Positions 1-25,771 of a DNA stretch of 64,000 nt are shown here, one piece after another (positions within the stretch are counted from its first letter, which is position 1; each line of letters begins with the position of its first letter). The DNA comes from Candidatus Longimicrobiales bacterium M2_2A_002. Lineage in GTDB: Bacteria; Gemmatimonadota; Gemmatimonadetes; Longimicrobiales; RSA9. Location: positions 33,459 through 97,458 of the forward strand of contig JBPRGE010000064.1 in assembly GCA_051418035.1 (NCBI GenBank), in the 5' to 3' direction. The position numbers were made by a program, and so were the translations under genes. The notes under the pieces are model-generated. The model saw only the letters and a program-made list of their open reading frames with translations. It ran no database searches and was not told the origin of the DNA.

Positions 1-2
1 AT

Positions 3-811: not shown

Positions 812-1272
812 GTCAGGCGACGATGGCGACGTTGCGTCCGGCGTCGTCCTCCGACCTTGCGGCGGTGGAGGCGCTGCTGGTCGGGGCCGATCTGCCGATG
901 GCGGGCGTGGCGGACTGGATCGACCGGTTCGTGGTGGCGGAGTCCGGCGGCGGCCTGGTGGGTGTGGCGGGGTTGGAGGTCCACGACGGAGACGGCGTGC
1001 TCCGGTCGGTGGCGGTGGCGCCGTCGCATAGAGGCCGTGGGCTGGGCGCGCGGCTGACGGAGCGGATGCTGGACGCGGCGCGGGCGGCCGGGCTGCGTCG
1101 CCTGCATCTGTTGACGACCACGGCGGACGACTATTTCCCGCGCCACGGCTTCCGTCGGATCGATCGGGCGGAAGTCCCGGCGGCGGTGCAGAAGAGCGTG
1201 GAGTTCCGCGATGCGTGCCCCGCGGCGGCGGTGGCGATGGTGCGAAACCTGGAGCTGGAGGAGGCGGGATGA
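808..1272 (+). CDS. arsN2: arsenic resistance N-acetyltransferase, ArsN2-like GNAT
   Basis: GNAT motif LRSVAVAPSHRGRGLG, LLTTTA..YFPRHGF and C-terminal SVEF..CPA typical of ArsN2; lies in ars operon. Confidence 0.85.
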   Translation: MSQATMATLRPASSSDLAAVEALLVGADLPMAGVADWIDRFVVAESGGGLVGVAGLEVHDGDGVLRSVAVAPSHRGRGLGARLTERMLDAARAAGLRRLHLLTTTADDYFPRHGFRRIDRAEVPAAVQKSVEFRDACPAAAVAMVRNLELEEAG

Positions 1273-2042: not shown

Positions 2043-2088
2043 CGGCGCGGGCGTTAGAACGTACATCGGGGAGCGGGAGTAGGGAGCG

Positions 2089-3207: not shown

Positions 3208-3264
3208 GCGCCGGTCCGGGGGAGTCCATGAGATCGCGGATCGAGAGACGCTTCCGGACGTTGG

Positions 3265-3300
3265 CCTTGGTGCGGCGTCCGCGTCGATCCAGATCTTCAT
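3265..3300 (-). pseudogene. 12-codon 5' remnant of a YaiI/YqxD (DUF188) gene
   Basis: MKIWIDADAAPR resembles the YaiI N-terminus (MKIWVDADACP) and starts 1 nt after the thioredoxin stop; the resemblance then ends. Confidence 0.55.
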
Positions 3301-3301
3301 T

Positions 3302-3553
3302 CTACGAGGCCGCAGCGTCCTCTCCGGTCAGCAGCTTCTTCACCTGCTCGACCGACAGCAGGTGTCCGGACGACTTCACGTCACCGTCCACCGCAAGGGC
3401 GGGCGTCATGGCCACGCCCATCCGGGCGATGTCCTTGATCCGCTCCACTTTCTCGATCTCGGCGTCGATGCCGAGCTCGCCGATCGCCTTTTCCGCGTTG
3501 GCCGTGAGCGCCTTGCACTTGGGGCAACCGGTCCCGAGGATCTGTATCTTCAT
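3302..3553 (-). CDS. small redox-active disulfide protein (thioredoxin_3 / MTH895-like)
   Basis: MKIQILGTGCPKC...GVAMTPALAVDG; follows an ArsP-like permease, a common arrangement. Confidence 0.9.
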   Translation of the reverse strand: MKIQILGTGCPKCKALTANAEKAIGELGIDAEIEKVERIKDIARMGVAMTPALAVDGDVKSSGHLLSVEQVKKLLTGEDAAAS

Positions 3554-3646
3554 GTTCGTTCTCCCTTGTTGTTTGCGAACGCTGGACCGTCCGGGGTTCC
3601 CCGGAAGACCCGTTGATGAAGTCTCGCCGAACTCATCGCCACGACC

Positions 3647-5044
3647 TCACACGATCGAGCCGTAGATCATCCCGGCCGTGGTGGCCATGACGACCGTCAG
3701 CGCCAGGAATACCGCTGTCTTCTTCGTGCCCATGAAGCTACGGATCACCAGGATGCTCGGCAGCGAGACGGCGGGGCCGGCCAGCAGCAGCGTGAGGGCC
3801 GGGCCATCGCCCATCCCGGAGCCCATGAGCCCCTGGAGGATCGGCACCTCGGTGAGTGTGGCGAAGTACATGAACGCGCCTGCGACCGAGGCGAACAGGT
3901 TGGCGCCCAGCGAGTTGCCGCCCACGGCCTCCGCCACCCACGCCGACGGGATCAGCCCCTCGTGACCAGGTCGTCCGAGGAGCAGCCCCGCCACCAGGAT
4001 CCCGATGAACAGGAGCGGGAAGATCTGCTTGGCGAAGCCCCAGGACGCGTTGAACCATTCCCCGGCCTCGCCGCCGCTCGTGCTGGCGGCGATGGACAGC
4101 CCGACCGTGGCCGCGGCGAACGGGATCAGCGGCTCGTGAGGGAAGAGGAGCGCGAGACCCGCGGTGACAACGGCAGTCGCGGCCACCTCCCATACGTTCA
4201 TACCGATCCACCGGACCAGCGCCACCGCCATTACGGCGGCGGCCGCCGCCGTCAGCTTCCACTTGGCCGCCCAGACGCCGTACCAGAAGCCCTCGACGGT
4301 GTCCGGCTGGCCCCAGTTGGCGAAGACCAGCACGGCCACCATGGCGCCGAAGAACGTGGCGGTCTGCCAGAGCGGCCGGCCGCCGTCCTCCGGCTCCGGG
4401 CCGGCCATCCAGTTGTCCGACCGCTCCATCTCGGAACGCCGGAAGATCAGGTGCATCAGGAGGCCGATCACCAGCGCGAACACGATGGCGCCCACCGCCC
4501 GCGCCACGCCCAGCTCGAGCCCCAGCACGTTCGCCGTCAGCACGATGGCCAGCACGTTGATGGCCGGGCCGGAGTAGAGGAACGCCGACGCGGGCCCGAG
4601 GCCGGCGCCGTTGGCGTAGATCCCGCCGAACAGCGGCAGCACCGTGCACGAGCAGACCGCCAGCAGCGTCCCCGAAACCGAGGCGACGCCGTAGGCCATG
4701 GGCTTCGGCGCCCGGGGCCCCAGGTACTTCAGCACCGCCTGCTCACTCAGGAAAACGGAGATCGCTCCGGCGATGAAGAACGCCGGGATCAGGCAGAGCA
4801 GCACGTGCTCCTGCGCGTACCACTTCGTCAGCGCCAGCGCCTCCGTAACCGCGCCGTCGAACCGGGCGTTGCCCACCGGCAGGAAGTAGAAGACCAGGAA
4901 GATCCCGGCGATCCACGCCAGCGGCTTCCACTCCGAACCCCAGTCCGTGGCGCCCGGCTCCTCGCGACGACGGCGCCACCACCCGGCAAGCCGCCGACCG
5001 AGTGGTACCCGCTCCCGCTCCGCAACCGACTCGCCCGTCTGCAT
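3647..5044 (-). CDS. ArsP-like (DUF318) permease
   Basis: HVLLCLIPAFFIAGAI, LAVCSCTVLPLF, FLYSGPAIN, MYFATLTEVP, LLAGPAVSLP. ATG 5044 follows a purine-rich RBS; the longer 5488 start overlaps arsR. Confidence 0.88.
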   Translation of the reverse strand: MQTGESVAERERVPLGRRLAGWWRRRREEPGATDWGSEWKPLAWIAGIFLVFYFLPVGNARFDGAVTEALALTKWYAQEHVLLCLIPAFFIAGAISVFLSEQAVLKYLGPRAPKPMAYGVASVSGTLLAVCSCTVLPLFGGIYANGAGLGPASAFLYSGPAINVLAIVLTANVLGLELGVARAVGAIVFALVIGLLMHLIFRRSEMERSDNWMAGPEPEDGGRPLWQTATFFGAMVAVLVFANWGQPDTVEGFWYGVWAAKWKLTAAAAAVMAVALVRWIGMNVWEVAATAVVTAGLALLFPHEPLIPFAAATVGLSIAASTSGGEAGEWFNASWGFAKQIFPLLFIGILVAGLLLGRPGHEGLIPSAWVAEAVGGNSLGANLFASVAGAFMYFATLTEVPILQGLMGSGMGDGPALTLLLAGPAVSLPSILVIRSFMGTKKTAVFLALTVVMATTAGMIYGSIV

Positions 5045-5061
5045 TCTCTCCCGTCCTCTCC

Positions 5062-5472
5062 TCACCCGGCCGCTGCGGCCGTATTCTCGTTCGCCTGCCC
5101 GCTGCCGCTGCATCGGGCCGCGTCCTCCGCCGACCGCCCCTCGGCACGCGCGTCCCGGATCTGGACCAGGAGCGGGGCGGCCTCCGGGAGCGGGCGGCTC
5201 GAGAGCAGCCCGCGCAGCAGCACCAGGATCGCCGACAGGTCCCCGTCCGGCTGCTGCGGCAGGCCGTAGTTCACCAGCAGTCCGTCCCGCTCGTCCTCCA
5301 GCACGCCGGCGTCCCGCAGGTAGCGCAGGTGCCGCGACGCCTTCGGCTGCGTGATCCCCAGGATCTGCTCCACCTCGCACACGCACAGCGGCCCGTGGCG
5401 GAAGATCAGCCCCATGATCCGCAGCCGGGTCTCGTTCGACAGCGCCTTGAACACTTCGTTCAGCCGGTCCAT
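5062..5472 (-). CDS. arsR: ArsR/SmtB family transcriptional repressor
   Basis: FKALSNETRLRI...PLCVCEV...QPKASRHLRYLRDAG, with the CVC As(III)-sensing motif. Confidence 0.9.
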   Translation of the reverse strand: MDRLNEVFKALSNETRLRIMGLIFRHGPLCVCEVEQILGITQPKASRHLRYLRDAGVLEDERDGLLVNYGLPQQPDGDLSAILVLLRGLLSSRPLPEAAPLLVQIRDARAEGRSAEDAARCSGSGQANENTAAAAG

Positions 5473-5486
5473 GCCCCCCCCCTTTC

Positions 5487-5502
5487 AATCGAAAAGTCGA
5501 TT
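5487..5502. promoter_or_regulatory. putative ArsR operator 1 (AATCGAAAAGTCGATT)
   Basis: Inverted repeat AATCG-N6-CGATT in AT-rich DNA just upstream of arsR. Confidence 0.65.
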
Positions 5503-5579
5503 AAAAGATTATCACTGCTCTCCCCGGCGTCAGTAGGGAGATCCCTGCAACTGGTCTGGTGGTTCTCCCCACAGACTGC

Positions 5580-5595
5580 AATCGGTTAAACGATT
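5580..5595. promoter_or_regulatory. putative ArsR operator 2 (AATCGGTTAAACGATT)
   Basis: Second AATCG-N6-CGATT with identical spacing, upstream of the divergent Trx/ccdA genes. Confidence 0.6.
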
Positions 5596-5650
5596 TACCC
5601 GACCATTGGAATCGTGGGCTCGAATGGCGACGCTGAAGGGAGCGGGCAAC

Positions 5651-6031
5651 GTGAGCATCGGATGGAAGCTGGCGGTCGCAGGCCTGGTGCTGGTGGCGGT
5701 GGCGGGCGCGCTGACCCTGAAGCAGACCGCTGAGGCGGGGCCGATCCCGTCGTCGGAGGTCCCGTTCGATCCGTCGGCCCCGGTGCCGGTGGAGCCGGTC
5801 CCGGAGAGCTACGAGTCGTCGGAGGACGGGGTGCCGCGGCTGGTGGCGCTGGGGGCGGGCGAGTGCATCCCGTGCCGGGCGATGGCGCCGATCCGGGCGG
5901 AGCTGCGCCGGGAGTATGCCGGGCGGCTCGAGGGGTACGGGTCGAAGGACGCGATCCTGGCGACGCTGGGGGACCTGGCGATCGACCCGCGGAGGCTGAC
6001 GGCGTCGCGGGTGGCCTCCTCGATGGACTGA
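5651..6031 (+). pseudogene. membrane-anchored thioredoxin with apparent internal in-frame deletion
   Basis: N-terminal TM, then PRLVALGAGECIPCRAMAPI...EYAGRLE joined directly to GYGSKDAIL; the central IDV...IPT (cis-Pro) segment is absent. GTG 5651 follows GAAGGGAG. Confidence 0.7.
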
Positions 6032-6264
6032 GCGCGGGGCTGGCGTCGTCGCCCGGGGTGGCGGTGGCCGCCGCGCTCGGGTGGGGTGTGGTGAGCGTGC
6101 TGCTGAGCCCGTGCCACCTGGCGGGGATCCCGCTGATCATCGGCTATGTGGCGTCGTCCGACTCCCTGCTCTCACCGTGGCGTGCGTTCTCGCTGTCGCT
6201 GGCGTTCGCCGTGGGGCACAGCGCGGTGATCATGGCGGGCGTGTACCTGGTGTACCAGGCGTGA
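6004..6264 (+). pseudogene. ccdA: CcdA/DsbD-type cytochrome c biogenesis protein, internally deleted, no canonical start
   Basis: WGVVSVLLSPCHLAGIPLIIGY is the first CcdA PC motif; it jumps to GHSAVIMAG and YLVYQA, and the second PC motif is missing; about 86 aa. Confidence 0.65.
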
Positions 6265-6386: not shown

Positions 6387-6878
6387 TCAGAAGGTCCAGT
6401 ACTCGAGGCCGTCGTAGTACTCCACGGTATCGACGAGTCCGTCGTCATCGAGATCCCAGAGTGCGTAATAGTCGTCCAGGAACTCGTCGTAGCCGACCAC
6501 TGGATCGGCGTCGGTGTACCAGTCCTCGTTCCACTGGGTCGTGTCGAGACCTTCGCTCACCTCATCGAGGTCGAGCTCCGAGTCGCTGTTCACATCCCAG
6601 TCGTCGAACACGCCCGGGTCCAGATCGTCTTCGTAGAGGTAGTCGACGCCCGTCTCCCATTCGGACTCGACGATGACGTCATCGTCGTCGACATCCCAGA
6701 CGTTGAACACCGTTTCGTTGATCTCGTCGGCGTCGAGCTCGGAGTCGCCGTCGATGTCCCATGGCCCAGTCGGTGTGCACGATCCTGAACCTCGTGCAGC
6801 TCTTCGCGCGAGACGAGTAGTCGCCCCCGTAGTCCGGTGAACGGACGTCCCGGGCCGTCCACGGACACCGGGCCTCAC
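6387..6878 (-). CDS. acidic EF-hand-like repeat protein (start uncertain, N-terminus may be degraded)
   Basis: Five W-D-x-D-x-D..E-type loops, e.g. WDIDGDSELDADE, WDVNSDSELDLDE, WDLDDDGLVDTVE. Confidence 0.6.
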   Translation of the reverse strand: MRPGVRGRPGTSVHRTTGATTRLARRAARGSGSCTPTGPWDIDGDSELDADEINETVFNVWDVDDDDVIVESEWETGVDYLYEDDLDPGVFDDWDVNSDSELDLDEVSEGLDTTQWNEDWYTDADPVVGYDEFLDDYYALWDLDDDGLVDTVEYYDGLEYWTF

Positions 6879-12547: not shown

Positions 12548-13447
12548 TCACTTCCTGCGCTCGAGCCTGGTGTCGTGCCAGGCGACGGGATCCTCGCGCG
12601 GCTCCATGTGCGTGAAGACCGTGATCCGCGGCACGACCTCCCGGATCTCCGCCTCCAGCTCCTCGAGCAGGTCGTGGCCTCGCTGGACCGTCCAGTCGCC
12701 GGGCACGAGCACGTGAACGGACATGAACCGGCGGGCCCCCGAGCGACGGGTGCGGAAGGCATGGAACTCGATCCCCCGGTCCCGGTATCGGGCGAGCACC
12801 TCGTGGATCCGCTCCTGCACGTCGGGTGAGAGCGCGGTGTCGAGAAGCCCGAGCATGGAGCGCCGGAGCAGCCCGGCTCCGACCCGGGTGATGTTCGCCG
12901 CGACGAACAGGGCGATGATCGGGTCGATGATGCTCCAGCCCGTGAGGCCGACCAGGCCGACGCCCAGGAGCACGCCGCCGGAGGTCCACACGTCCGTCAT
13001 CAGGTGGTGGGCGTCGGCCTCCAGCGCGATGGACTCGTGCTCCCGGGCGGCCTGGAACAGGACGCGGGCGACCAGCAGGTTGATCCCCGAGGCGATGAGC
13101 GAAATGGCGAGGCCGAGCCCCACGTGCGTCAGCGGTGACGGCGACAGGAGACGCTCGAGGGCGGTGCCCACGATGACCAGGGCCGCCACCAGGACGAGCG
13201 CGCCCTCGAAGCCGCTCGAGAAATACTCCGCCTTCGTGTGCCCGTACGCGTGCTCCTCGTCCGGCGGCCGGCTGGCCACGGCGAGCGCCCGCAGGGCCAC
13301 GACCGCGGCGACCAGGTTGACCCCCGACTCCAGGGCATCCGAGAGGAGGCCGACCGAATCGGTCAGCACGTACGCCCCACCCTTCAGGGCGATCGTCGCG
13401 ATCGCAGCGGCGACGGACAGCCACGCGTACCGCGTCAGCTTCTCGAT
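12548..13447 (-). CDS. cation diffusion facilitator (FieF-like), probable ATC start
   Basis: [55 protein letters not shown] sits 4 nt before an in-frame ATC at 13447. Confidence 0.88.
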
Positions 13448-13636
13448 GCGGACCTCCCTTCCCGGTATCCGTCCACGATCAGCAGCTTGGGCCGGTGAAG
13501 AACCCAACAACGTACCGCCTGCAGGAGAAGGCGACAAACGCGCGAACGCCACGGATTCCACCTTCCTCCCCTGAAGGATCCTCCATATATTCGCCAACAG
13601 TCCGCCGATTCGTTCGCCCTCACACCGGGAGCCCGC

Positions 13637-14152
13637 ATGTTCGACGACATCGACCTCAGGATCCTCGCGATGCTCAAGGAGGACGCCCGCGTCGCAAACG
13701 CCGCCATCGCCCGCGACGTCGACCTCGCACCCTCCGCCGTCTTCCAGCGGATCAGGAAGCTCGAGGAGAAGGGCGTCATCCAGGGCTACCACGCCAGGAT
13801 CGACCCCGACGCCCTCGACCAGGGGCTCCTCGCCTTCATCAGCGTCCAGACCGGCGAGGGGGCACGGGCCAAGGAGACCGCCGAGATGCTCGCCGCCGTC
13901 CCCGAAGTCCTGGAGGTCCACCGCGTCGTCGGCGATGACTGCTTCTACCTCAAGGTCCGCGTCAAGGACACCGGCGCCCTCGGCGCGCTCCTCGACGAGA
14001 AGATCCAGACGCTCGACCCCGTCGCCTCCACCAACACCACCATCGTCCTGAGCACCGCCAAGGAGCAGGACGTCCGGCTCCCCGACACCGGCCCGTCCCC
14101 GGCCTCCGATTCCGGCACGCCGTCCGGCTCCCGTCGCAGAAAGGCGTCATAA
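13637..14152 (+). CDS. Lrp/AsnC family regulator
   Basis: [16 protein letters not shown]...[14 protein letters not shown]; [15 protein letters not shown]. Confidence 0.92.
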
Positions 14153-14247
14153 TTTCGGCTGGCGCTCGATTCAGAGGTTGATTCTTCGTCGTAACCCCCG
14201 TTATACTGAAGATCGTTCGTATCTTTGATCCAAGAGAATGGGGGGCG

Positions 14248-14922
14248 ATGATGAGGCGATCGGGTGTGCGCGTCGGGATGGTGCTGGTGCTGGTTGCGGC
14301 GGTCGGAGTGTTCGCGTCGTGCGAGAATGGGACGGACCCGGCCACGGATGGCGGGACCAACGGCGGGACGGACACGGGGTCGGTCCTGGCCACGGTGACG
14401 GCGGACGGGAGCGGGTTGTCCGGCGTGACGCTGGAGCTCTTCGCCGGGAGCGGCACGACGGTGCTGGAGACCGCGACGACGGACGCGGCGGGCGAGGCGA
14501 CGTTCACGCAGCTGGAGGCGGGGTCGTACGAGGTGGAGGTCACGGTTCCGGCGACCTATCGGCTGGCGGCGGGCAGTTCGGCGCGGCAGACCGTGAACGT
14601 GGTGGACGGTCAGGAGTCCACGGTGTCGTTCGCGCTGGAGACGGACCCGGACGCCAACGTGGTGGAGGTCACGCTGACGAACTTCGAGTTCACCCCGGGT
14701 GATCTGACCATCGAGCCGGGGACGACGGTCCGGTGGGTCAACCAGACGAGCACATTCCATACGGTCACGCCGGATGGGCACAGCGAATGGACGGAGAGCT
14801 CGCTTTCGGAGGTGGGTGAGACGTTCACGCACACCTTCGATACGGAGGGCACGTTCCCGTACTACTGCAGTCCGCACCGTGATCTCGGGATGACGGGCTC
14901 CGTCACGGTCCAGGCACCGTAG
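14248..14922 (+). CDS. lipoprotein with Ig/prealbumin-like stalk and C-terminal type-1 copper (plastocyanin-like) domain
   Basis: Lipobox FASC; TTDAAGEATFTQLEAGSYEV; FHTVT...YYCSPHRDLGM supplies His/Cys/His/Met ligands. Confidence 0.85.
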   Translation: MMRRSGVRVGMVLVLVAAVGVFASCENGTDPATDGGTNGGTDTGSVLATVTADGSGLSGVTLELFAGSGTTVLETATTDAAGEATFTQLEAGSYEVEVTVPATYRLAAGSSARQTVNVVDGQESTVSFALETDPDANVVEVTLTNFEFTPGDLTIEPGTTVRWVNQTSTFHTVTPDGHSEWTESSLSEVGETFTHTFDTEGTFPYYCSPHRDLGMTGSVTVQAP

Positions 14923-16070
14923 TGGGGCGGGCGACGACGGTCCGGGTCCGGCATCCGGTGGCTGTCGGGCTCCTGGTCGCCGGGCTGGCGGCGCTCGTGG
15001 CCGTGCCGGCAGGCGCCCAGTCGACGCTCGAGCGGACGCCGAGCCTGGACGGTCCGTGGGTGTCGGACGCGGGGGTGGCCCATTTCCACCTGATCCACCG
15101 GTTCTGGGTAACGGACCCACCGGCCCGCAAGGTGGTCAACACGCCCACGATGACGGTGGCGGCCGGTCTGGGCCGGGGCCTGCTGGTCGGGGCCCGGTAC
15201 GCGTCGAACTCCACGCTGGGCTCGCTGCCGAACGAGTGGGAGGCGTACGCGCGCTGGCGTCCGTTGACGGCGGCGAGCTCGGGGCTGGCGGACGTGGCCG
15301 TGTCGGCCGGCTGGAACGGTGCGGCGGAGAGCACGGATGGCGAGCTGTCGCTGGCCCGGTCCCTCGGTCCGGTCCGGCTCCTCGGCGCCGTCCGGGCGTT
15401 CAGCGCCTTTGCCGGCGGCGACTCCGAGCTGGCATACGGCGGCGGCGCGGCGTGGCGTGTTCATCGCAACATCGCCCTTTCCGGCGACGTGATGACACTG
15501 GCATCCGACACGACCGTGGGGTGGGGCATCGGCCTCCAGCTCCGGATCCCGACCACGCCGCATACCGTCTCCCTGCACGCAACGAACATCAACGCCGTCA
15601 CGCTGCAGGGATCCTCCTTCGGGAGTGCGGCGATCAGCGGGGACACGGGCGACCCCCGAACGCTGTACGGGTTCGAGTTCACGATCCCCATCACGTTGAG
15701 CCGCTACTTCGGCGGCGGGGGTGCCGAGCCGGCGCCGTCGGTGCGCGATGGCCCTGCGCCCTCCGACACGGCTGTGGTCACCATGGACAACCGGCTCCGG
15801 TTCCTGCCGGACACCGTGCGGATCCGGGCCGGTCAGGCCGTACGCTGGGAGAACACGTCGGACCTGCTCCACACCGTGACGGCCGATCCGGATCTGGCCG
15901 CGCTGGCGTCCAGCACAGCGCTGCCCGACGGGGCGCCCGCTTTCAACAGCGGGGATCTGGCTCCCGGGGCCGTGTATCTGCGGGTCTTCGATGTCCCCGG
16001 CACGTACAAGTACTTCTGCATACCGCACGAGCGCGCCGGGATGGTCGGCTGGGTCATCGTCGAGGAGTGA
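14922..16070 (+). CDS. exported putative beta-barrel (DUF5777-like) fused to a C-terminal cupredoxin
   Basis: Signal peptide; FHLIHRF, amphipathic strands (YGGGAAWRV, WGIGLQLRI, HTVSLHATN, YGFEFTIP); LHTVT...YFCIPHERAGM. Confidence 0.75.
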   Translation: MGRATTVRVRHPVAVGLLVAGLAALVAVPAGAQSTLERTPSLDGPWVSDAGVAHFHLIHRFWVTDPPARKVVNTPTMTVAAGLGRGLLVGARYASNSTLGSLPNEWEAYARWRPLTAASSGLADVAVSAGWNGAAESTDGELSLARSLGPVRLLGAVRAFSAFAGGDSELAYGGGAAWRVHRNIALSGDVMTLASDTTVGWGIGLQLRIPTTPHTVSLHATNINAVTLQGSSFGSAAISGDTGDPRTLYGFEFTIPITLSRYFGGGGAEPAPSVRDGPAPSDTAVVTMDNRLRFLPDTVRIRAGQAVRWENTSDLLHTVTADPDLAALASSTALPDGAPAFNSGDLAPGAVYLRVFDVPGTYKYFCIPHERAGMVGWVIVEE

Positions 16071-17031: not shown

Positions 17032-17358
17032 GGCTCTCGCCCCCGGGCGAGGTTCTCCGTGTGATTCTCCATGTACCGTCCGTTGTCCGTGAATTCTACT
17101 CCGTCGGGCAGGAAAAAGCCCGCCGCGAGGTGTCCAGTGCCATGGTGCCGGGCGCCGCGTCCGCTCGATCTCGTCCGGTATCTCCGTGTCCATGCCCGGT
17201 GGGCGGGCTGCCATCGCTGGCCCCGGCATTCGGGGGTATCCCCTGGGTCGCTCGGTCCTTAGCATTGTGGGAAACACGGATCATTTTCGGCAGTCGTGGA
17301 CGGACCCGAGTGGTGCGTCGGACAACGGGACGGCGTCGAAAAGCGTCAGAAGGATACA

Positions 17359-19665
17359 ATGACTATCGAACATAGAGGTACGCGGGCGGCCGGCTGGCTC
17401 GTGTTGGCGGGACTGCTCGCGGGCGGGCTGTTTCTCACGCCGGTGGAGGCTTCCGGCCAGGACGCAGTGGTGCAGGGCATTCTCGTGGACGAGGACACGT
17501 CGCAGCCGCTCCACGGGGTGGACGTGGTGCTGGAGCAGGATGGCGAGGTGGTCCGGGCCACGATCACGAACCGGAACGGTCTCTTCCAGATTCCGGGGAT
17601 CCGGCCGGGGACGTACACGCTGCGCATAGTGACTCCGGGCTACGAGGTCGTCGAGGAGACGATCGAGCTCGAACCGGGGGAGGTGCTGACTGCGAGTCGC
17701 GACCTGGAGGTGGACCCGGTCCAGCTGGAGGGGATCGGGGTCGTCACCGAGGGACCGGGCGCGGTGCGGCGGGAGCTGGGCGTCCAGACGATCCAGTCGG
17801 TGGAGCTGTCCCGGATCCCGACCCCGGCGGCGACGGGTGACCTGGTGAGCTTCCTCCAGACCCAGCCCGGGGTGGTGGGAAGCGGCGATCGAGGTGGGCA
17901 GCTCTTCATCCGTGGAGGCACGCCCACGCAGAACATGGTCCTGATGGACGGCATGCTGGTCTACCAGCCGTTCCACATTACGGGTCTCTTCTCGACGTTC
18001 CCGGAGAATCTCGTCCAGAGCGCCCAGTTCTTCCCGGGCGGATTCGGCCCGAAGTACACGGGCCGGATGTCCTCGGTGCTGGACGTCCAGATGCGGGATG
18101 GGAGCCACAGCCGGACATCGGCGGCGGTCTCGGCGAGCCCGTTCCTGGCCTCGGCCTCGGCCGAAGGCCCGCTGGGGTCGACCGGTCGCAACTCCTACAT
18201 CGTGTCGTTCCGGCGTTCGATGATCCGGGAGACGAGTCCATGGCTGCTGGGCGAGGAGCAGCCCCTGGGCTTCAACAGCCAGTACATCCGGCTGAGTGAG
18301 CTGAACCCGGACAGGAGCTCCCGGTGCTCGTTCACGTTCATGCGCAGCCGCGACGAGGGCGGTCTGGATCCCGATGACCCCGTCTCGCGGGTCGGGTGGA
18401 CCAACCTGCTGGTGGGCGGGCGGTGCCGGACGCTGGCGGGGGTGAACTTCCTGGACGTCCGGTTCGGGCGTACGTCGGTGAGCAGCGAGGCGGTCACCCG
18501 TGGGGCGTCCGAGTTCGAGTCGTCGGCCAGCCGGATCTTCATCGATGCCGACGCCAGCCGCCCGCTGACATGGGCGCAGCTGAACTGGGGCGGTCACATC
18601 CACGTGGAGAGCACCAGCTACGACCTCCAGGAACTCCTCGCCGAGAACTCGGAGCAGGAGAACCGGTGGTGGGTCCTCGGTGGGTACGGCGAGCTCGAGA
18701 TCCCGCTGGGCGCCGGGCTCCGGGTCCTGCCGGGGGCGGCGTTCTCGGTGGCTTCGCGGCAGCGGTCGATCTTCGAGCCGCGTCTGCGGGCCTCGTGGGC
18801 GGTGGACGCGGTGGACGGCGAGCTGAACGGTGCGGTGGGGCTGTACGAGCAGCGACTCACGGGCATCAGCGACCGCCGGGACGCCAGCTCCGTGTTCACC
18901 GCCTGGGTCCCGTCCCGGTCCGGGTCGCGGATGCGCTCCCTCCACGCGCAGGCGAGCTGGGAGCAGAGCATCGGGTCCGCCTTCTCCTACTCCGTGGATG
19001 TGTACGCCCGGCGGATGGAGGATCTGACGGTAGCGACGTGGAGCACCGTCGCCAGCTTCAACACGGATCTCTCGCTGGCCAGTGGCCGGGCTCACGGTGT
19101 CGATGTGCGGGTGGAGTACCGGCGCGGCCCGGTGTACCTGTTCGGCGGATACGGATACAGCCAGACGACGTACGAGTCGGCCCAGGAAGATTTCGGCCAA
19201 TGGTTCGGCGAGCCGGTCCAGAGCTACAGTCCCCCGCACGACCGTCGCCATCAGCTCAGCCTGCTGGGGAGCCTGGAGCTCGGGCGCGTCATGGTATCCG
19301 CCCGCTGGGAGTACGGCTCCGGGTTCCCGTTCACGCGGCCCATCGGCTTCGATGAGATCTTCGACTTCCGTACCACCGACAGCCCGCTGCCGCGGCTCAC
19401 CCGCAGATTCGGGCAGACCCGGCTGCTGCTGGACCGGCCGTACAACGGACGCCTTCCGGCCACGCACCGACTCGACTTCTCGGTCCGCCGTCCGGTGACG
19501 ATCGGCTCCAGCGAGCTGGAGCTGCAGGCCGGCGTGATCAACCTGTACGACCAGACGAACATCTTCTATTACGACGTCTTCGCGCAGCGGCGGGTGGACC
19601 AGCTGCCGGTCGCGCCGTACCTGTCGGCCAAGCTGCAGATCCCGTCGTCGGAGGACCGGCCATGA
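17359..19665 (+). CDS. TonB-dependent receptor with N-terminal carboxypeptidase-regulatory-like domain
   Basis: Signal peptide; plug QTQPGVV...LFIRGGTPTQNMVLMDG, PGGFGPKYTGRMSSVLDV; HDRRH, HRLD and NLYDQTN barrel motifs. Confidence 0.9.
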   Translation: MTIEHRGTRAAGWLVLAGLLAGGLFLTPVEASGQDAVVQGILVDEDTSQPLHGVDVVLEQDGEVVRATITNRNGLFQIPGIRPGTYTLRIVTPGYEVVEETIELEPGEVLTASRDLEVDPVQLEGIGVVTEGPGAVRRELGVQTIQSVELSRIPTPAATGDLVSFLQTQPGVVGSGDRGGQLFIRGGTPTQNMVLMDGMLVYQPFHITGLFSTFPENLVQSAQFFPGGFGPKYTGRMSSVLDVQMRDGSHSRTSAAVSASPFLASASAEGPLGSTGRNSYIVSFRRSMIRETSPWLLGEEQPLGFNSQYIRLSELNPDRSSRCSFTFMRSRDEGGLDPDDPVSRVGWTNLLVGGRCRTLAGVNFLDVRFGRTSVSSEAVTRGASEFESSASRIFIDADASRPLTWAQLNWGGHIHVESTSYDLQELLAENSEQENRWWVLGGYGELEIPLGAGLRVLPGAAFSVASRQRSIFEPRLRASWAVDAVDGELNGAVGLYEQRLTGISDRRDASSVFTAWVPSRSGSRMRSLHAQASWEQSIGSAFSYSVDVYARRMEDLTVATWSTVASFNTDLSLASGRAHGVDVRVEYRRGPVYLFGGYGYSQTTYESAQEDFGQWFGEPVQSYSPPHDRRHQLSLLGSLELGRVMVSARWEYGSGFPFTRPIGFDEIFDFRTTDSPLPRLTRRFGQTRLLLDRPYNGRLPATHRLDFSVRRPVTIGSSELELQAGVINLYDQTNIFYYDVFAQRRVDQLPVAPYLSAKLQIPSSEDRP

Positions 19666-20846
19666 GCGGTCCGATGCGTTTGAAGCGTCTGATGCGCCTG
19701 GCCCCGCTCGTCCTCGGCGTGCTGCTGGTCGCGAGCTGTGACGAGCCGCTGGAGCCGTTCCAGGAGAACACCATCGGTCCCTACTCGGTCTACGGGTACC
19801 TGGATCTGTCCGCGGACACGCAGTGGATCCGGGTCACGCCGATCCGGCAGGACATCCGGCCGGATTCCACCGCCATCGACGCGGCGGTCACGCTGGAAGA
19901 GGTGGGCAGCGGTCGGGTCCTCACACTCCAGGACTCCCTCTTCCGCTTTGTCGACCGCGGCGTCGGCGGCGCGGGCTACGCCCACAACTTCTGGACGACC
20001 GAGCCGCTCGGGCCCGACGCCACCTACCGGCTCCGGGTGGAGCGCTCCGATGGCGCCGCCACCACCGCCGTGGTCGAGATGCCCGCGGAGCCCCGGGTAA
20101 CGCTCCGGTTCTTCGAGAACCCCGAGACCCCGGGACTCCGGCTGCCGCGTCAGCTCGTGGTGCAGACGGAGAATGTCCTGTATACCTACCTCGCCTACAC
20201 TGTGTGGAACGAGAACACGCAGCGGGGCGTCGATCCGGTGGTCCTGCGGTGGCCGCCGACCTCCTTCGGATCGGGTCTGTGGCGGTTCACCTTCCCGGGG
20301 ATCGGGCCGCTGGACCGGCTGGACATGCCCCCTTACATCGACATGCTCCGGCGGGAGGCCCGCCTGGCGACGGCGGGCAGCGACTGGCCCTATGACGCCG
20401 ACCTGTCCGATTCGGACCTCTCGATCCCCGGGCTGGTCCCGACCACCGTGGAGAACGGCGTCGGGCAGGTCCGGGGGGTGTCCACGTGGCGGATCCCGCT
20501 GGTCTTCTGCGAGATCCTGGAGCCGACACCCGATGGCCGGGGCTGCACTCTGGAGCTCCACCGGCCGTCGGCCACGGTGGTCGGCACGGTGGTCGATGAC
20601 CCGTGCGCGGGGCCGCGGCACCTGCCGGCGGTCCGTCTGACGCAGCAGTTCCCGGTTGGCGGCGCCGTGGCCTGGAACTGGACCGCCGACTGGGACGGGA
20701 GCTACCGGTTCATCGGGATCGAGCCCGGGGCCGACCTCCTCCTGGAGTTCGAGGACGCGGGGACGACGATCCCGATCCCGCCACTCGAGCCCGGTGAGCG
20801 GTACGTGGCGCCGGAGGTCGTGGTGCCCAGCACATGCCAGTCCTAG
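19662..20846 (+). CDS. TonB-receptor-associated lipoprotein, copy 1 (DUF4249-like)
   Basis: Lipobox VASC; VYGYLDLSADTQWIRV, TTVENGVG; ATGA-coupled to the receptor. Confidence 0.75.
   Translation: MSGPMRLKRLMRLAPLVLGVLLVASCDEPLEPFQENTIGPYSVYGYLDLSADTQWIRVTPIRQDIRPDSTAIDAAVTLEEVGSGRVLTLQDSLFRFVDRGVGGAGYAHNFWTTEPLGPDATYRLRVERSDGAATTAVVEMPAEPRVTLRFFENPETPGLRLPRQLVVQTENVLYTYLAYTVWNENTQRGVDPVVLRWPPTSFGSGLWRFTFPGIGPLDRLDMPPYIDMLRREARLATAGSDWPYDADLSDSDLSIPGLVPTTVENGVGQVRGVSTWRIPLVFCEILEPTPDGRGCTLELHRPSATVVGTVVDDPCAGPRHLPAVRLTQQFPVGGAVAWNWTADWDGSYRFIGIEPGADLLLEFEDAGTTIPIPPLEPGERYVAPEVVVPSTCQS
20381..20840 (+). repeat. 460-bp near-identical direct repeat, copy 1
   Basis: Aligns without gaps to 21613-22072 (offset 1232); about 17 mismatches by manual count. 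Confidence 0.9.
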
Positions 20847-22096
20847 GCTCTCGGCCCGTCCGGCGGGTACGTCGTTCGTCCGGGCCACGGCCAGACCGCC
20901 GTGGGGGGAGACCCGGCGTTCTGCGGCGTCTGGCTCCGCTCCTCCTCGGTGTGCTCCTCGTCGCCGGCTGCGAAGAGCCGTTCGAGCCGTTCCAGGAGAA
21001 CACCATGGGTCCGTTCTCGGTCTACGGGTACCTGGACCTGTCCGCGGACACGCAGTGGATCCGGGTCACACCGATTCGGCAGAACATCCGGCCGGATTCC
21101 GCCGCCATCGATGCGGTGGTCACACTGGAGCACGTGGGCAGTGGCCGGATCGTCACGCTCCGGGACTCCCTCTTCCGCTTCGCGGACCCCGACGTCGCTG
21201 GCTCATCGGCCTGGGTCCACAACTTCTGGACGACCGAGCCCCTGGAGCCGGAGGCCACCTACCGGCTCCGGGTGGCGCGCTCCGATGGGGCAGCCACGAC
21301 CGCCGTGGTCGAGATGCCCGGGGAGCCCCGGCTCACGCTCCGGTTCTTCTCCAACCCCGAGACGCCCTTCCGGCTGCCACGTCAGCTCGTAGTGGAGACG
21401 GAGCACTTTCTGTATACGGATGTGGCCTACACGGTATGGAACGGGAACACGGAGCGAGGCGATGATCCCGTGGTCCTGCGCTGGGCGCCCGCCTTCGCGG
21501 ACCCGGGCCGCTGGGGGTTCGTCCTGCCGGGGATAGGCTTCGGGCAGACACTGGACATGCCCCCCTACACCGATATGCTCCGGAGGGAGGCCCGTGTGGC
21601 GACCGCGGGCACCGACTGGCCCTATGACGCCGACCTGTCCGATTCGGACCTCTCGATCCCCGGGCTGGTCCCGACCACCGTGGAAAACGGCGTCGGGCAG
21701 GTCCGGGGGGTGTCCACGTGGCGGATCCCGCTGGTCTTCTGCGAGATCCTGGAGCCGAGACCCGATGGCGCCGGCTGCACCACGGAGCTCCACCGGCCGT
21801 CGGCCACGGTGGTCGGCACGGTGGTCGATGACCCGTGCGCGGGGCCGCGGCACCTGCCGGCGGTCCGTCTGACGCAGCAGTTCCCGGCCGGCGGCGCCGT
21901 GGTCTGGAACTGGACCGCCGACTGGGACGGGAGCTACCGGTTCATCGGGATCGAGCCCGGGGCCGACCTCCTCCTCGGTTTCGAGGACGCGGGGACGACG
22001 ATCCCGATCCCGTCGCTCGAGCCCGGTGAGCGCTACGTGGCGCCGGAGGTCGTGGTGCCCAGCACATGCCAGCGCCGATACTCGCGCTTCCCTTAA
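20834..22096 (+). CDS. TonB-receptor-associated lipoprotein, copy 2 (start uncertain)
   Basis: Lipobox VAGC; clear tandem paralog of 19662-20846. Confidence 0.75.
   Translation: MPVLGSRPVRRVRRSSGPRPDRRGGRPGVLRRLAPLLLGVLLVAGCEEPFEPFQENTMGPFSVYGYLDLSADTQWIRVTPIRQNIRPDSAAIDAVVTLEHVGSGRIVTLRDSLFRFADPDVAGSSAWVHNFWTTEPLEPEATYRLRVARSDGAATTAVVEMPGEPRLTLRFFSNPETPFRLPRQLVVETEHFLYTDVAYTVWNGNTERGDDPVVLRWAPAFADPGRWGFVLPGIGFGQTLDMPPYTDMLRREARVATAGTDWPYDADLSDSDLSIPGLVPTTVENGVGQVRGVSTWRIPLVFCEILEPRPDGAGCTTELHRPSATVVGTVVDDPCAGPRHLPAVRLTQQFPAGGAVVWNWTADWDGSYRFIGIEPGADLLLGFEDAGTTIPIPSLEPGERYVAPEVVVPSTCQRRYSRFP
21613..22072 (+). repeat. 460-bp near-identical direct repeat, copy 2
   Basis: Partner of 20381-20840; both copies end at CCCAGCACATGCCAG. 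Confidence 0.9.
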
Positions 22097-22647
22097 TTCA
22101 GCTCCCGATGGAGCCACGCCCGGGCCATGCGCAGGTCGCGATCCACCGTGGCCGGTGATATCTCCAGGGCCGCCGCGACTTCAGGATGGGTCAGACCGCC
22201 GAAATAGTGGAGCTCCACGACCCGGCTCTTGCGCTCGTCCACCTCGGCCAGGCGATTCAGCGCCTCGTCCAGCGCCAGAACCAGCTCGGAGGGCTCCGAG
22301 TCCGGGACCAGCGCCTCCTCCAGCGTGACCTTCACCGCGTCGCCACCCCGTTTCTGGCGTGACTTCGCCCGGGCGTGGTCGACCAGCACGCGCCGCATGA
22401 CGGTGGCTGCGGTGGCGAGGAAGTGGATCCGGTCGTTCCAGTCGATGTCGGCGTCTACCAGCCGCGCGAAGGCCTCGTGGACCAGCGCGGTGGGCTGCAG
22501 CGTGTGATCGGGCCGCTCACCGCGCATCGCCCGCCCCGCCAGACGTTTGAGCTCGTCGTAGATCAGCGGCACGAGCCGGTCGGGCGCGTTCTCGTCGCCC
22601 TGGCGCCAGGCGTGCAGCAGCTGGGTAACGGTCTTCGGATCGGTCAT
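22093..22647 (-). CDS. ECF sigma factor, kinase-associated (TIGR02999-like)
   Basis: VTQLLHAWRQGD, LVPLIYDELKRLA, HTLQPTALVHEA, MRRVLVDHAR..KRGG, VELHYFGGLT, DLRMARAWL. Confidence 0.92.
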   Translation of the reverse strand: MTDPKTVTQLLHAWRQGDENAPDRLVPLIYDELKRLAGRAMRGERPDHTLQPTALVHEAFARLVDADIDWNDRIHFLATAATVMRRVLVDHARAKSRQKRGGDAVKVTLEEALVPDSEPSELVLALDEALNRLAEVDERKSRVVELHYFGGLTHPEVAAALEISPATVDRDLRMARAWLHRELN

Positions 22648-22660
22648 CGTATCGGGTCGA

Positions 22661-25624
22661 TCACGGCGGCACCGCCTCCGCCCGCGCGGGCTCCCCGAGG
22701 GAACGGAAGAACTCCACCACCCGCTGACGGGCCAGCTCCCGGTGGCGGCTGTTCTCCGTCGTGCCGGCCCTCACGGCATCGTACCCGTTCACGAGAAGCG
22801 GTTCGGCTTCCGCGTAGGAGCCCCTCGCGGCGAGAACTTCGCCCAGCAGCGTCTGGCTCAACGCGATCAGCCAGTTGTCCGCATCCAGCGCCGTCCGACG
22901 GATGCGGAGGGCCTCGCGCACCGTCCGCTCGGCCTTATCGAGCTGACCCGTGGCGAGGAAGTAGCGGGCCAGGTTGTGCAGCCCCTCGGCCACGGCAGGA
23001 TGGTCCGCGCCCAGGGCGCTGCGGATCATGTCCGAGCCATGACGCAGGGGCTCACCGGCGGCCTCCACCTGCCCGTCGCCCAGAAGGTAGATCCCGATCA
23101 GCACCAGGTCCTGCCCGATGTACGGATGGTCCTCGCTGAGCGTCTCGCGGTCGATGGCGAGCGCCTGGCGCTGGTAGTCGAGGGCGCCGGCGAAGTCCCG
23201 ACGGTCCGCTGCCACGTGGGCGAGGTTGTTCAGCGTGGTGGCCACCTCGGGATGGTCATCGCCGAAGGTGCCGCGCCGGATCTCCAGCGACCGGCGGTAT
23301 AGCCGCTCCGCCTCGTCCAGCGCCTCCTTCGCGACGTAGGACGCGGCCAGGTTGTTCAAGGTCGTGGCGAGCTTGTCGTGGTCGGGGTCGTAGACGTCCC
23401 GCTGGTGCTCGAGGACCCGCGTCAGGATCTCGATCGCCTCGTCGTGTCGATCCAGGTTCTGCAGGGCCACGGCCAGATTGCTCAACCGCACTGTGGTCGA
23501 CGGATGGTCGGCGCCCAGGATGCGCTCTCCGTGCTCCACCGCCTCGCGGAACAGGGCCACCGCCTCCGCCGGCTTCCCCTGCAACCGCAGCGTCTCCGCC
23601 AGTGCGTCCAGGTAGTAGCCCACACCGGGGTGATCCTCGCCCAGTCCCGCCCGGGCGCGCTCCAACGCCTCCCGCAGGACCGTCTCCGCTTCCGCGTGGT
23701 TTCCCTGCCGCGACTGTGTCCGGCCGAGGTTTGCCAGCGCCACGACCAGGGTCTCGATATTCGCCTCGCTCGGCGGCAGGCGGCGGCCCATGTCGGTGGC
23801 CTCCCGCAGCACCGAGTCCGCCCGGGCGTAGTCGCCCCGATGGAACGCGTTCATCCCCAGGCCGTTGAGCGTGGCCACGAGATCGACGTGCGGCGGGTCG
23901 AGCTCGGCGCGGCGGAGCTCCTGCGCCGCCAGCAGCAGCGAGTCGGCGCGCTCGTAATCCCCCAGGTCCCGGGCCAGCCCCGCAAGGTCGTGCATTGCCT
24001 CGGCCCGCGGCAGCGGCCCCGCGTCTCCTTCGGCGCGACGCAGCTCGAGTGCGCCCTCCAGGAAGGGGCCCGCCTCCTCGTACAAACCCAGGCTCTCGTA
24101 GACCCCTCCGATCACCCCCAGCATCGTCGCCCGCAGCTCCGGCTGGTCCGCCAGCTCCCGCTCGATCCGCCCGGCGCCGGCGTCCAGCAGCTCGCCCGCC
24201 GTTAGCTCCCGGCCCCTGGCCTCGTACGGGTCCGCCGCCTCGAAGAGGCCCGTCAGGAAACCGACCACCCGCTCCGCCTTCTCCGCCTCCGCCCGGGCCC
24301 GGTCGCGCTCCGCCGCCAGCCGCGCGGTATAGAAGGCGGTGAGACCGGCCACTACGACCAGCGCCGCCGCCGTCCCCGCCACGCCCACCCGATGACGCCG
24401 GACGAACTTGCCCAGCCGATACCCCACCGAGTCGGGCCGCGCCCTCACCGGCAGCCCGTCCAGATGCCGGCGGATGTCCTCCGCCAGTCCCTCCACCGAC
24501 GCATAGCGCCGGCCCGGCTCCTTCCGCAGCGACATCAGCAGGATCTTGTCGAGATCGCCCCGCAGGCGTCGGCGCAGCCGATGCGGGGTCGTCCCCCGTG
24601 CCGCGGCCACCTCCTGAGGCGACCCGTCGCCCGCCCCTTCGACCTCGACGGCCTCCCCGCCGGCCCGGGTCACCGCGGCGCTGGGTCGCTCCGGTTCCTC
24701 CTCGGTGATTGCCCGCTCCGTCTCCCGCGGCGTGCGGCCCGCCAGCCGGTACGGCCGACGCCCCGTGAGCAGCTCGTAGAGGAGGACGCCCAGCGAGTAG
24801 ACGTCGCTGGCGGTGGTGATCGTCTCGCCCCGCACCTGCTCGGGGCTGGCGTACTCGGGGGTCATCAGCCGCGCCGCCGTTCGCGTATGCGCGGTCCCGG
24901 GAGGCACGTCCAGCAGCTTGGCGATCCCGAAGTCGAGGAGCTTCGGCACGCCGTCGTCCGTGACGAGGATGTTGCCCGGCTTGATGTCCCGATGGACGAC
25001 CAGGCTGCGGTGGGCGAACTGAACCGCTTCGCATACACGGACGAACAGGCGCAGCCGATCATCGATCGACAGCCCGCGCCGATCGCAGTAGACGTCGATG
25101 GGCTCGCCCTCCACCCGCTCCATGACCACGTACGGCAGCCCGTCCTCGGTGGTGCCGCCGTCCAGAAGGCGCGCGATGTTGGGGTGGTCCAGGTCGGCGA
25201 GTATCTGACGCTCGGTCAGGAAGCGACGGCGGATCCGGGGGTCGTCGGCGCCCAGCCGGACGAGCTTGATGGCGACCTCCTGCCGATACTCGTCGTCCGC
25301 CCGGACCGCGGAGTAGACCGCGCCCATCCCGCCGCGTCCCAGCACCCCCCTCACCTCGTAGGACCCGATCCGTCGCCCCTCGAACGTCCGGGAAGGCTCG
25401 CCGTGCACCGAGGCCGCCACCTCGCCCAGCGCGGCCTCCACGGCGGCACCGAATCCACCGGCGGCGGCGTCCGCCCGCAACAGCGAGTCCACCTCCCGCC
25501 GCAACTCGCCGTCGTCTCCGCAGGCCCGCTCCAGGTACGCCTCGCGGTCGCTTTCGGGCAACGCGATGGCCTCCGAGAAGATCTCCTCGACCCGGCGCCA
25601 CCGGTCTCTGGGAGTGTCGTCCAT
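22661..25624 (-). CDS. Hanks-type Ser/Thr kinase with TM and TPR array
   Basis: LGRGGMGAVY, VAIK, HRDIKPGN, LLDFGIAK, TPEYASPEQ, DVYSLG; TM segment; repeated DHP..ATTLNNLA TPR units. Confidence 0.95.
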   Translation of the reverse strand: MDDTPRDRWRRVEEIFSEAIALPESDREAYLERACGDDGELRREVDSLLRADAAAGGFGAAVEAALGEVAASVHGEPSRTFEGRRIGSYEVRGVLGRGGMGAVYSAVRADDEYRQEVAIKLVRLGADDPRIRRRFLTERQILADLDHPNIARLLDGGTTEDGLPYVVMERVEGEPIDVYCDRRGLSIDDRLRLFVRVCEAVQFAHRSLVVHRDIKPGNILVTDDGVPKLLDFGIAKLLDVPPGTAHTRTAARLMTPEYASPEQVRGETITTASDVYSLGVLLYELLTGRRPYRLAGRTPRETERAITEEEPERPSAAVTRAGGEAVEVEGAGDGSPQEVAAARGTTPHRLRRRLRGDLDKILLMSLRKEPGRRYASVEGLAEDIRRHLDGLPVRARPDSVGYRLGKFVRRHRVGVAGTAAALVVVAGLTAFYTARLAAERDRARAEAEKAERVVGFLTGLFEAADPYEARGRELTAGELLDAGAGRIERELADQPELRATMLGVIGGVYESLGLYEEAGPFLEGALELRRAEGDAGPLPRAEAMHDLAGLARDLGDYERADSLLLAAQELRRAELDPPHVDLVATLNGLGMNAFHRGDYARADSVLREATDMGRRLPPSEANIETLVVALANLGRTQSRQGNHAEAETVLREALERARAGLGEDHPGVGYYLDALAETLRLQGKPAEAVALFREAVEHGERILGADHPSTTVRLSNLAVALQNLDRHDEAIEILTRVLEHQRDVYDPDHDKLATTLNNLAASYVAKEALDEAERLYRRSLEIRRGTFGDDHPEVATTLNNLAHVAADRRDFAGALDYQRQALAIDRETLSEDHPYIGQDLVLIGIYLLGDGQVEAAGEPLRHGSDMIRSALGADHPAVAEGLHNLARYFLATGQLDKAERTVREALRIRRTALDADNWLIALSQTLLGEVLAARGSYAEAEPLLVNGYDAVRAGTTENSRHRELARQRVVEFFRSLGEPARAEAVPP

Positions 25625-25771
25625 ACCGCCGAGGCTACCTGCAGGCCGCCGGGCTGTCAATCATCGTTCTCGTTATCGGATGAGGAGATCCGGCCGGGAA
25701 TGACGCTTACCCGGATGGAAGGCACCCGAGAGGGCTCACCTGTCTGTCCTCGAGCGATGGAGGCACACGAG

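Follow-up and report, generated by a model that had tools for sequence, protein, structure and literature searches.

Can a small outer-membrane barrel and two copper proteins carry electrons across the outer membrane of a bacterium? Two overlapping genes raise this question in a 64,000-nucleotide stretch of DNA, hereafter the window, from Candidatus Longimicrobiales bacterium M2_2A_002 (Gemmatimonadota; contig JBPRGE010000064.1, positions 33,459 to 97,458). Gene 1 encodes a lipoprotein in which a type-1 copper domain (cupredoxin) is carried on an immunoglobulin (Ig)-like stalk, and gene 2 encodes a predicted barrel fused to a second cupredoxin. The outer-membrane electron conduits known so far comprise multihaem chains housed in large barrels and the fusion protein Cyc2. 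A preliminary description, made from the DNA letters alone, had read the pair as a copper-based electron conduit or a copper-capture channel and had likened it to Cyc2 and MtrAB. We find that the module is real, conserved and apparently undescribed; no paper describing a barrel-cupredoxin fusion was found in the literature outside supplements. That the barrel and the two cupredoxins together form a trans-membrane electron conduit in the outer membrane is, in our judgement, about evenly balanced between true and false. The strongest support for an electron-carrier role is that cupredoxin, cytochrome c and Rieske proteins occupy the same slots beside this barrel family.

Architecture of the gene pair

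The GTG start codon of gene 2 shares one base with the TAG stop codon of gene 1, and the guanine-cytosine fraction of the pair, about 0.70, resembles that of the remainder of the window. The features of the two genes are as follows, with lengths in amino acids (aa).

14248-14922, + strand: gene 1, lipoprotein with Ig-like stalk and type-1 cupredoxin, 224 aa
14248..14322, + strand: lipoprotein signal peptide and Cys25 of gene 1 (lipobox FAS-C25)
14377..14646, + strand: Ig-like (prealbumin/SdrD-B-type) domain of gene 1, residues ~44-133 (three Pfam families)
14656..14919, + strand: cupredoxin of gene 1 (PF00127 at residues 139-222, E 4e-14)
14922-16070, + strand: gene 2, signal peptide, DUF5777-like 12-stranded barrel, linker and type-1 cupredoxin, 382 aa
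15018..15710, + strand: predicted 12-stranded outer-membrane barrel of gene 2, residues 33-263 (AlphaFold2 and fold matches)
15018..15071, + strand: conserved N-terminal segment Q33-A50, putative lumen plug (conservation and covariation)
15096..15098, + strand: His59, HRF motif, strand 1, probably lipid-facing (339/350 family rows)
15561..15563, + strand: His214, PH motif, start of strand 11, probably lipid-facing (340/350 family rows)
15711..15770, + strand: Gly/Pro/Ala linker, 20 aa (predicted local distance difference test (pLDDT) ~60, low confidence at about residues 264-283)
15771..16067, + strand: cupredoxin of gene 2 (placed in the periplasm by predicted barrel topology)

In gene 1 an acidic Gly/Thr linker separates the lipobox from the Ig-like domain, which scores above the Pfam cut-offs for PF17210 (E 5e-11), PF17802 (E 5e-10) and PF13620 (E 4e-8). 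Its cupredoxin, with the type-1 ligands H171, C207, H210 and M215, is acidic (12 D/E vs 2 K/R), and 226 homologues of the protein were found at E<=0.001. The corresponding ligands of gene 2, H317, C366, H369 and M374, are invariant in 121/121 homologues, and C366 is the only Cys of that protein. The two cupredoxin domains score 53.1 and 50.4 bits against PF00127 (cut-off 21.2), and both fall under the equivalog cut-offs for plastocyanin, amicyanin and halocyanin. The overlap by one base, the complete ligand set in each gene, the stalked lipoprotein and the order of domains in gene 2 are as first described, the domain behind the signal peptide measuring 231 aa where about 240 had been estimated.

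Scoring of 7998 candidates returned 345 homologues of gene 2, whose signal peptide ends at AGA/Q33; Q33 is retained in 119/121 homologues. The 231-aa domain has no Pfam match. An AlphaFold2 model built with 121 sequences (mean pLDDT 89) shows 12 long strands over residues 52-258, and the closest folds are 12-stranded outer-membrane barrels: VhGalP (Z 18.4, root-mean-square deviation (rmsd) 2.9, 182 aligned), FapF (Z 18.2, rmsd 3.2, 192 aligned, beginning at residue 34), KdgM (Z 17.7, rmsd 2.3, 166 aligned), and a COG4313 barrel (Z 16.8). LpxR (Z 15.1, rmsd 3.4, 174 aligned) is also a fold neighbour, as is PcoB (Z 11.9, rmsd 4.2, 177 aligned), which ranks below KdgM and FapF at about 18. The domain is thus predicted to be a 12-stranded outer-membrane barrel, and the soluble domain that had been named as the alternative is not indicated. 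To judge from these models, the fold matches are generic and give no indication of function; FapF and COG4313 are tied with unrelated porins, and neither matches the barrel in sequence. Among solved structures no credible sequence relative of the barrel was found, the only matches being two to BamB (E 0.006-0.007).

The C-terminal domain of gene 2 resembles plastocyanin (Z 13.7, rmsd 1.5, 91 aligned), and the solved relatives nearest to the family cupredoxin profile are amicyanin and the cupredoxin domains of 9cck and 6hbe. Outer-membrane barrels have a periplasmic N-terminus and, since the number of strands is even, this cupredoxin is predicted to lie in the periplasm. The linker that leashes it has a median length of ~22 aa in the family and reaches ~116 aa (a rough estimate from 292 rows). 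In one 1045-aa record (P0124) a TonB-dependent receptor is joined to the barrel-cupredoxin, which is likely a frameshift join of neighbours.

Conservation and linkage of the module

The barrel is present in 87 of 301 Gemmatimonadota genomes, one of them unpublished, and the named homologues of gene 2 are from Gemmatimonadota; at E<=0.001 the barrel is matched by 367 representative proteins. We compared 100 loci, made up of the 80 best matches to the fused protein and 20 more divergent ones, with duplicates retained (L023 is the same locus as L132, and L020 is probably the same as L100; L063 and L064 are near-identical). The barrel is joined to a cupredoxin in 99 of them, a fraction inflated by the way in which the first 80 were chosen. 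A lipobox cupredoxin lies within 3 kb of the barrel in 84 of the 100 loci and, with only four PF00127 matches in the whole of this 3.35-Mb genome, the pairing goes beyond chance. The pair is therefore conserved, as the preliminary description had supposed. A second cupredoxin was also found within 1.5 kb in 26 of 29 further loci.

Nine of the 100 loci have a neighbour with two or more ligand motifs. In L069 (3871-6225) and L079 (3874-6234), lipoproteins with four Big_2-cupredoxin repeats lie upstream of the barrel. Elsewhere in the genome under study, a cupredoxin-SHOCT protein (L084 656-1327) sits on a 1.4-kb contig and is possibly bin contamination.

Pfam scans at E<=1e-14 covered 270 of 286 neighbour representatives, and small proteins may be missed at this threshold. 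Recurring neighbours among the 100 loci are regulators of the Lrp (20), AraC (14) and sigma-54 (19) types, and possible donors or acceptors are a CHRD lipoprotein (11), a sugar dehydrogenase (6) and an NrfD-type protein (1). No conserved multihaem gene was found nearby, CxxCH occurring in 6 of the 985 called genes of these loci.

Kinship with DUF5777 and exchange of carriers

No match of gene 2 to DUF5777 (PF19089) passes the Pfam gathering cut-off of 23.1 bits. Weak matches at E<=1 occur in 33/121 homologues, the best at 2.3e-5, and one distant relative (P0254) scores 33.8. Profile comparison by hhalign of 80 barrels with 19 true DUF5777 gave a probability of 96.5 and E 8.9e-10 over 196 columns at 18% identity, with His59 and His214 both aligned. 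The DUF5777 model also has 12 strands and shares its fold neighbours with the gene 2 barrel. In a quick tree, DUF5777 and the cupredoxin-fusion barrels separate; this tree has many open forks and was used for three points alone, namely that DUF5777 is separate, that cytochrome fusions form one group and that His losses form one group, and not for the direction of change. As it misses the Pfam cut-off and falls into a separate tree group, the gene 2 barrel is, on sequence comparison, a distant sister of the unstudied DUF5777 family and not a member of it. No paper naming DUF5777 or PF19089 was found in the literature outside supplements, which may list such genes.

True DUF5777 is present in 34 of 81 genomes of the phylum holding L004. 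In Bacteroidota, where it stands in operons with a cytochrome c lipoprotein and YceI, it shares with gene 2 the remote homology, the 12 predicted strands, both His residues and a neighbouring lipoprotein that carries one electron. In contrast, the gene 2 family usually has a C-terminal cupredoxin and no YceI nearby. One 606-aa chain contains two DUF5777 barrels (L154 3873-5690), hinting at a dimeric unit, and a protein in a DUF5777 operon (L155 6243-6995) has a type IX secretion tail and a weak DOMON match, and is possibly a surface haem protein.

The neighbourhoods of 20 of the 39 true DUF5777 matches were examined. A carrier adjoins 18 of the 20 genes (17 by script, the 18th on the other strand); most are cytochromes c, with a cupredoxin in L160 and L162, a Rieske protein in L150 and a fused cytochrome-like domain in L166. 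Two 'cytochrome' matches (L148 7601 and L166 3605) look spurious, and both loci have other carriers. Carriers also change within the gene 2 family. The 150 representatives listed include 92 full barrels, of which 55 carry a fused cupredoxin, 3 a fused mono-haem cytochrome c and 10 a tail of another kind; the remaining 24 are barrels on their own. Some of the stand-alone barrels may be cut gene calls, and the other tails often look frameshifted. A metagenome scan for cytochrome-fused forms yielded 1 locus from 141 pattern matches. Altogether, four barrels carry a fused cytochrome c in place of the cupredoxin and, as they form one group in the quick tree, they count as one swap. In L135, next to hemA and hemC, the layout recurs in a haem version: the barrel is fused to a cytochrome, and a soluble cytochrome and a CxxCH lipoprotein on a stalk accompany it. 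In L051 an Ig-stalked CX4CH lipoprotein, whose cytochrome match is under the cut-off, lies upstream of a barrel-cupredoxin.

That one slot can be filled by three unrelated one-electron carriers points to electrons as the cargo rather than to any particular metal. In the neighbour scans, no more than 3 of the 100 loci have copper-handling genes beside them (P1B ATPases at L051 and L118, a multicopper oxidase at L025) and, taken together with the carrier swapping, this makes electrons, not copper, the likely cargo. The electron-carrier part of the preliminary description thus gains support.

These counts also bear on copper capture or resistance, in which the barrel would pass copper and the cupredoxins would bind or reduce it, like PcoB/CopB and CopI. 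Every partner at this locus is indeed a copper protein, a cation-efflux gene lies 0.7 kb upstream of gene 1 and PcoB is a fold neighbour of the barrel; PcoAB/CopAB (a barrel with a multicopper oxidase) and CopI likewise combine a small outer-membrane barrel with copper proteins. However, haem and Rieske proteins stand in for the cupredoxins, neither of the two Met residues in the barrel is conserved, and it has no Cys. The PcoB/CopB family gave no match to the window protein and is absent among the 25 families listed (of 32) for 121 members; the oxidase partner occurs at 1 of 100 loci, and the carriers here are single type-1 domains, not a catalytic oxidase. CopI, which passages of PMC7558416 describe as a plastocyanin-like copper-resistance protein, has a model (NF051440) against which gene 1 scores 19.8 with a cut-off of 280 and gene 2 has no match. 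Copper handling of the CopI and OprC types, as those passages present it, is not supported here. The Cu-capture channel is thus a weak proposal, and we give it very little chance of being correct. PcoAB itself is proposed, in a passage of PMC5566968, as a possible copper-based electron conduit.

The tight linkage of barrel and lipoprotein, whichever carrier is present, could also mean that the barrel serves to export or hold redox lipoproteins, as a translocator or anchor comparable to FapF with its cargo, or is a mere tether for a periplasmic carrier. FapF is among the top fold matches and has a similar N-terminal segment, and paralogues of gene 2 without the His residues retain the fused cupredoxin. 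Such a role leaves unexplained, however, why the fused redox domain switches between copper and haem and why two His residues persist between phyla whose proteins share 18% identity. Folded Ig or cupredoxin domains are too large to go through a 12-strand lumen, and many lipoproteins of the window have no such barrel. We therefore consider this role improbable.

The histidine pair and a proposed crossing of the membrane

Equivalents of His59 and His214 are invariant in 19/19 true DUF5777. Hydrophobic alternation puts both on the lipid face, on either side of strand 12 (conserved F251 and F253), with His214 close to the periplasmic turn. From covariation and an idealised barrel, their separation is ~11 Å on the best-supported register and 9-16 Å across registers. 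The idealised 12-strand barrel has a C-alpha radius of ~11-12 Å, so that a cupredoxin cannot fit inside it. The copper-to-copper docking through the barrel that had first been envisaged is not supported, in view of this radius and a likely lumen plug. Coppers on opposite membrane faces would be at least 35 Å apart, which is more than one tunnelling step. A single-step jump between them would thus not be possible, and a middle centre would be needed. His59 and His214 may hold such a bridging cofactor, most likely haem b, otherwise a quinone or a metal. As this near-invariant pair could bind a b-type haem, the 'haem-free' label given to the module at first is unproven.

In the conduit that we favour, the copper domains would act as one-electron carriers, as their replacement by haem c and Rieske proteins suggests, and the middle centre would be bound by the two lipid-facing His residues, 9-16 Å apart. 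The leashed cupredoxin would join the barrel to periplasmic or inner-membrane chains. It may do so in place of YceI, which adjoins 17/20 true DUF5777 genes (the YceI model was built from the same DUF5777 loci, and Pfam confirmed the 7 scanned) and 0/100 cupredoxin-fusion barrels. The lipoprotein is possibly on the cell surface, where it could exchange electrons with surface enzymes or outside donors and acceptors; its Ig spacer, and the up to four cupredoxin repeats of its relatives, would be features of a lipoprotein that exchanges electrons there. A motif search of the genome found a haem-copper oxidase subunit I motif, three CuA motifs and a NirK-like motif, and the proteins concerned could take electrons from the cupredoxins. 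A more specific proposal, which we advance tentatively and regard as doubtful, is that DUF5777-like barrels are outer-membrane b-type cytochromes that hold haem on the lipid face through the two His residues and relay electrons between one carrier in the periplasm and another, a lipoprotein, at the surface, the copper, haem c and Rieske centres of these carriers being interchangeable.

Catalytic, lipid-facing His residues occur in PagL, OmpLA and LpxR. The barrel may accordingly be a lipid-facing redox enzyme, its His pair serving as a catalytic or quinone site that acts on outer-membrane lipid, peroxide or quinone, with all carriers periplasmic and no electron leaving the cell. The same carrier swapping and the same His pair fit such an enzyme, as do the position of His214 near the periplasmic turn, LpxR among the fold neighbours and the YceI genes beside true DUF5777. 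A lipid-protecting role of this kind is the main rival to the conduit; it has a parallel in BcnA-LcoA, a lipocalin and cytochrome b561 pair that guards against envelope lipid peroxidation according to PMC9113575. However, YceI is missing from the fusion loci, a leashed and a lipid-anchored carrier look redundant on one side of the membrane, and Ig spacers with up to four cupredoxin repeats are better suited to reach from the surface. On balance we judge the enzyme unlikely.

The lumen and comparison with known conduits

The segment behind the signal peptide, with conserved residues Q33, R38, P40, G44 and W46, covaries with lumen residues (T35-Q206, S41-R60, S41-E105, R38-R111, L36-T215), and for this reason the lumen is likely plugged by residues 33-50. 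Its conserved residues are both acidic (E105, E107, D139, D189, E252) and basic (R60, R111, R158).

Cyc2, described in parts of PMC13741234, invites comparison, since in Cyc2 and Cyc2PV-1 with rusticyanin an outer-membrane barrel is likewise combined with a single redox centre on the periplasmic side and a blue-copper protein takes part in the chain. As there, Fe(II) or Mn(II) might enter the charged lumen and be oxidised by the periplasmic type-1 copper, and the conserved acidic residues and the cytochrome c-fused forms would agree with such a pore. However, the lumen also has the conserved Arg residues and the putative plug, the redox domain, instead of being fixed at the pore, hangs on a flexible leash that can reach ~116 aa, and the lipid-facing His pair is given no role. 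Cyc2 has an N-terminal CxxCH mono-haem domain and, in the same parts of PMC13741234, a 16-strand model, whereas gene 2 has 12 strands and a C-terminal leashed cupredoxin; here there is also a lipoprotein partner, and no sequence family match links the two. We hold a Cyc2-like pore to be highly improbable.

MtrCAB, MtoAB/PioAB and PCC3/PCC4, as passages of PMC5566968 present them, share with the module a barrel, a lipoprotein carrier and a periplasmic carrier in one operon. Those conduits use multihaem cytochromes, whereas here no conserved multihaem gene adjoins the barrel, whose lumen leaves no room for an inserted protein. MtrA, for its part, sits inside a much larger barrel. By analogy, the module would functionally be most like a porin-cytochrome conduit or Cyc2, but without their defining features. 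The nearest family is DUF5777 and not Cyc2 or MtrB. The copper-based conduit first proposed finds support as regards barrel, pairing and carrier role, but none as regards copper-to-copper docking.

Cytochrome cy of Rhodobacter and Laz of Neisseria are tethered carriers. Like them, and like the barrel-linker-domain layout of the OmpA type, gene 2 has its carrier on a Pro/Ala-rich membrane leash, but its anchor is a conserved outer-membrane barrel with an invariant His pair of its own.

Evidence that weighs against a conduit

Several observations weigh against the conduit. The orientation of the His residues is deduced from alternation, shallow covariation (effective number of sequences 266, 227 columns) and an idealised barrel, and the register so deduced would tilt a bis-His haem to near parallel with the membrane, an unusual arrangement. 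In the quick tree the His losses are all confined to one long-branched clade of 13 rows, most of which keep the full type-1 ligands; cupredoxin and His pair are therefore not strictly coupled, and the His-His covariation signal is partly kinship. At the level of loci, the selection of the first 80 favours fused forms, 16 of the 100 have no cupredoxin neighbour, and no conserved donor or acceptor gene was found near the module among the 100. This genome also encodes a further lipoprotein cupredoxin with no barrel close by (L170 1738-2133), and ~18 kb upstream of gene 1 there is already a candidate conduit of the porin-multihaem kind.

The fast-evolving clade that has lost one or both His residues includes L133 1138-1821 and P0166, P0182, P0204, P0216, P0226, P0228-P0230, P0240, P0255 and P0270; three of its rows are also without type-1 ligands. 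We rejected the joint loss of both residues as independent evidence.

Flanking DNA and other genes

Upstream of gene 1 are a regulator gene and two candidate control elements.

13637..14152, + strand: Lrp/AsnC-family regulator gene (PF01037, E 1e-19), likely regulator of the pair
14178-14207, + strand: sigma-70-like promoter, weak (1 promoter-like site vs a shuffle mean of 0.2)
14178-14188 and 14209-14219, + strand: short motif present twice, 31 bp apart and overlapping the promoter, weak candidate regulator sites

An Lrp gene lies immediately 5' of the module on the same strand in 19 of the 100 related loci, two of the 19 being one locus. By-eye comparison found paired motifs resembling 14178-14219 upstream in several relatives, and an alignment of the upstream DNA of relatives contained no invariant column. 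The promoter-like site and the doubled motif are thus weak candidates for control elements. In L001 an Ig-only lipoprotein without a cupredoxin (5109-5471) lies between the Lrp gene and the gene 1 orthologue. In L020 a cytochrome P460-family gene (5457-5888) stands just 5' of an unfused barrel, which a lipoprotein cupredoxin follows.

In the window, the cation-efflux (CDF) gene at 12548-13504 (- strand) is divergent from the Lrp gene, and its adjacency to the module is not kept in relatives. Positions 1-5472 hold an arsenic-resistance-like cluster with an SBF-family transporter, an ArsP permease, a thioredoxin-like protein and what we take to be a methyltransferase and regulators. Short thioredoxin-like and DsbD-membrane-like pieces at 5606-6264 are apparently truncated, and 6387-6878 (- strand) encodes an Asp-rich, very acidic repeat protein with no Pfam match. 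Beyond the module, 17296-25660 encodes a TonB-dependent receptor and then two paralogous lipoproteins, the first without a Pfam match; on the opposite strand are, presumably, an ECF-sigma-like gene and a kinase-like repeat protein.

On the same contig, a porin-multihaem-like cluster (L168 3089-12751) ends ~3.7 kb before the window. It encodes an 8-haem lipoprotein, a 491-aa protein without a Pfam match that is possibly a porin, and a 16-haem cytochrome, and facing genes encode two 9-haem cytochromes, a Rieske protein and a cytochrome b. A second multihaem cluster of the genome (L169 4333-14956) encodes 17-, 11- and 12-haem cytochromes, a cytochrome b561-type protein and a two-component pair.

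Implications

If the proposal for DUF5777-like barrels is true, they would constitute a third architecture for electrons crossing the outer membrane, widespread in aerobic heterotrophs that are not known as electroactive. The barrel-cupredoxin fusion would be a handy test protein, as its blue-copper band would report electron flow from a barrel-bound cofactor within one chain. DUF5777 gains a testable function, and a small barrel whose partners are single-centre copper, haem or Rieske carriers would be a further route, one overlooked by present marker searches.

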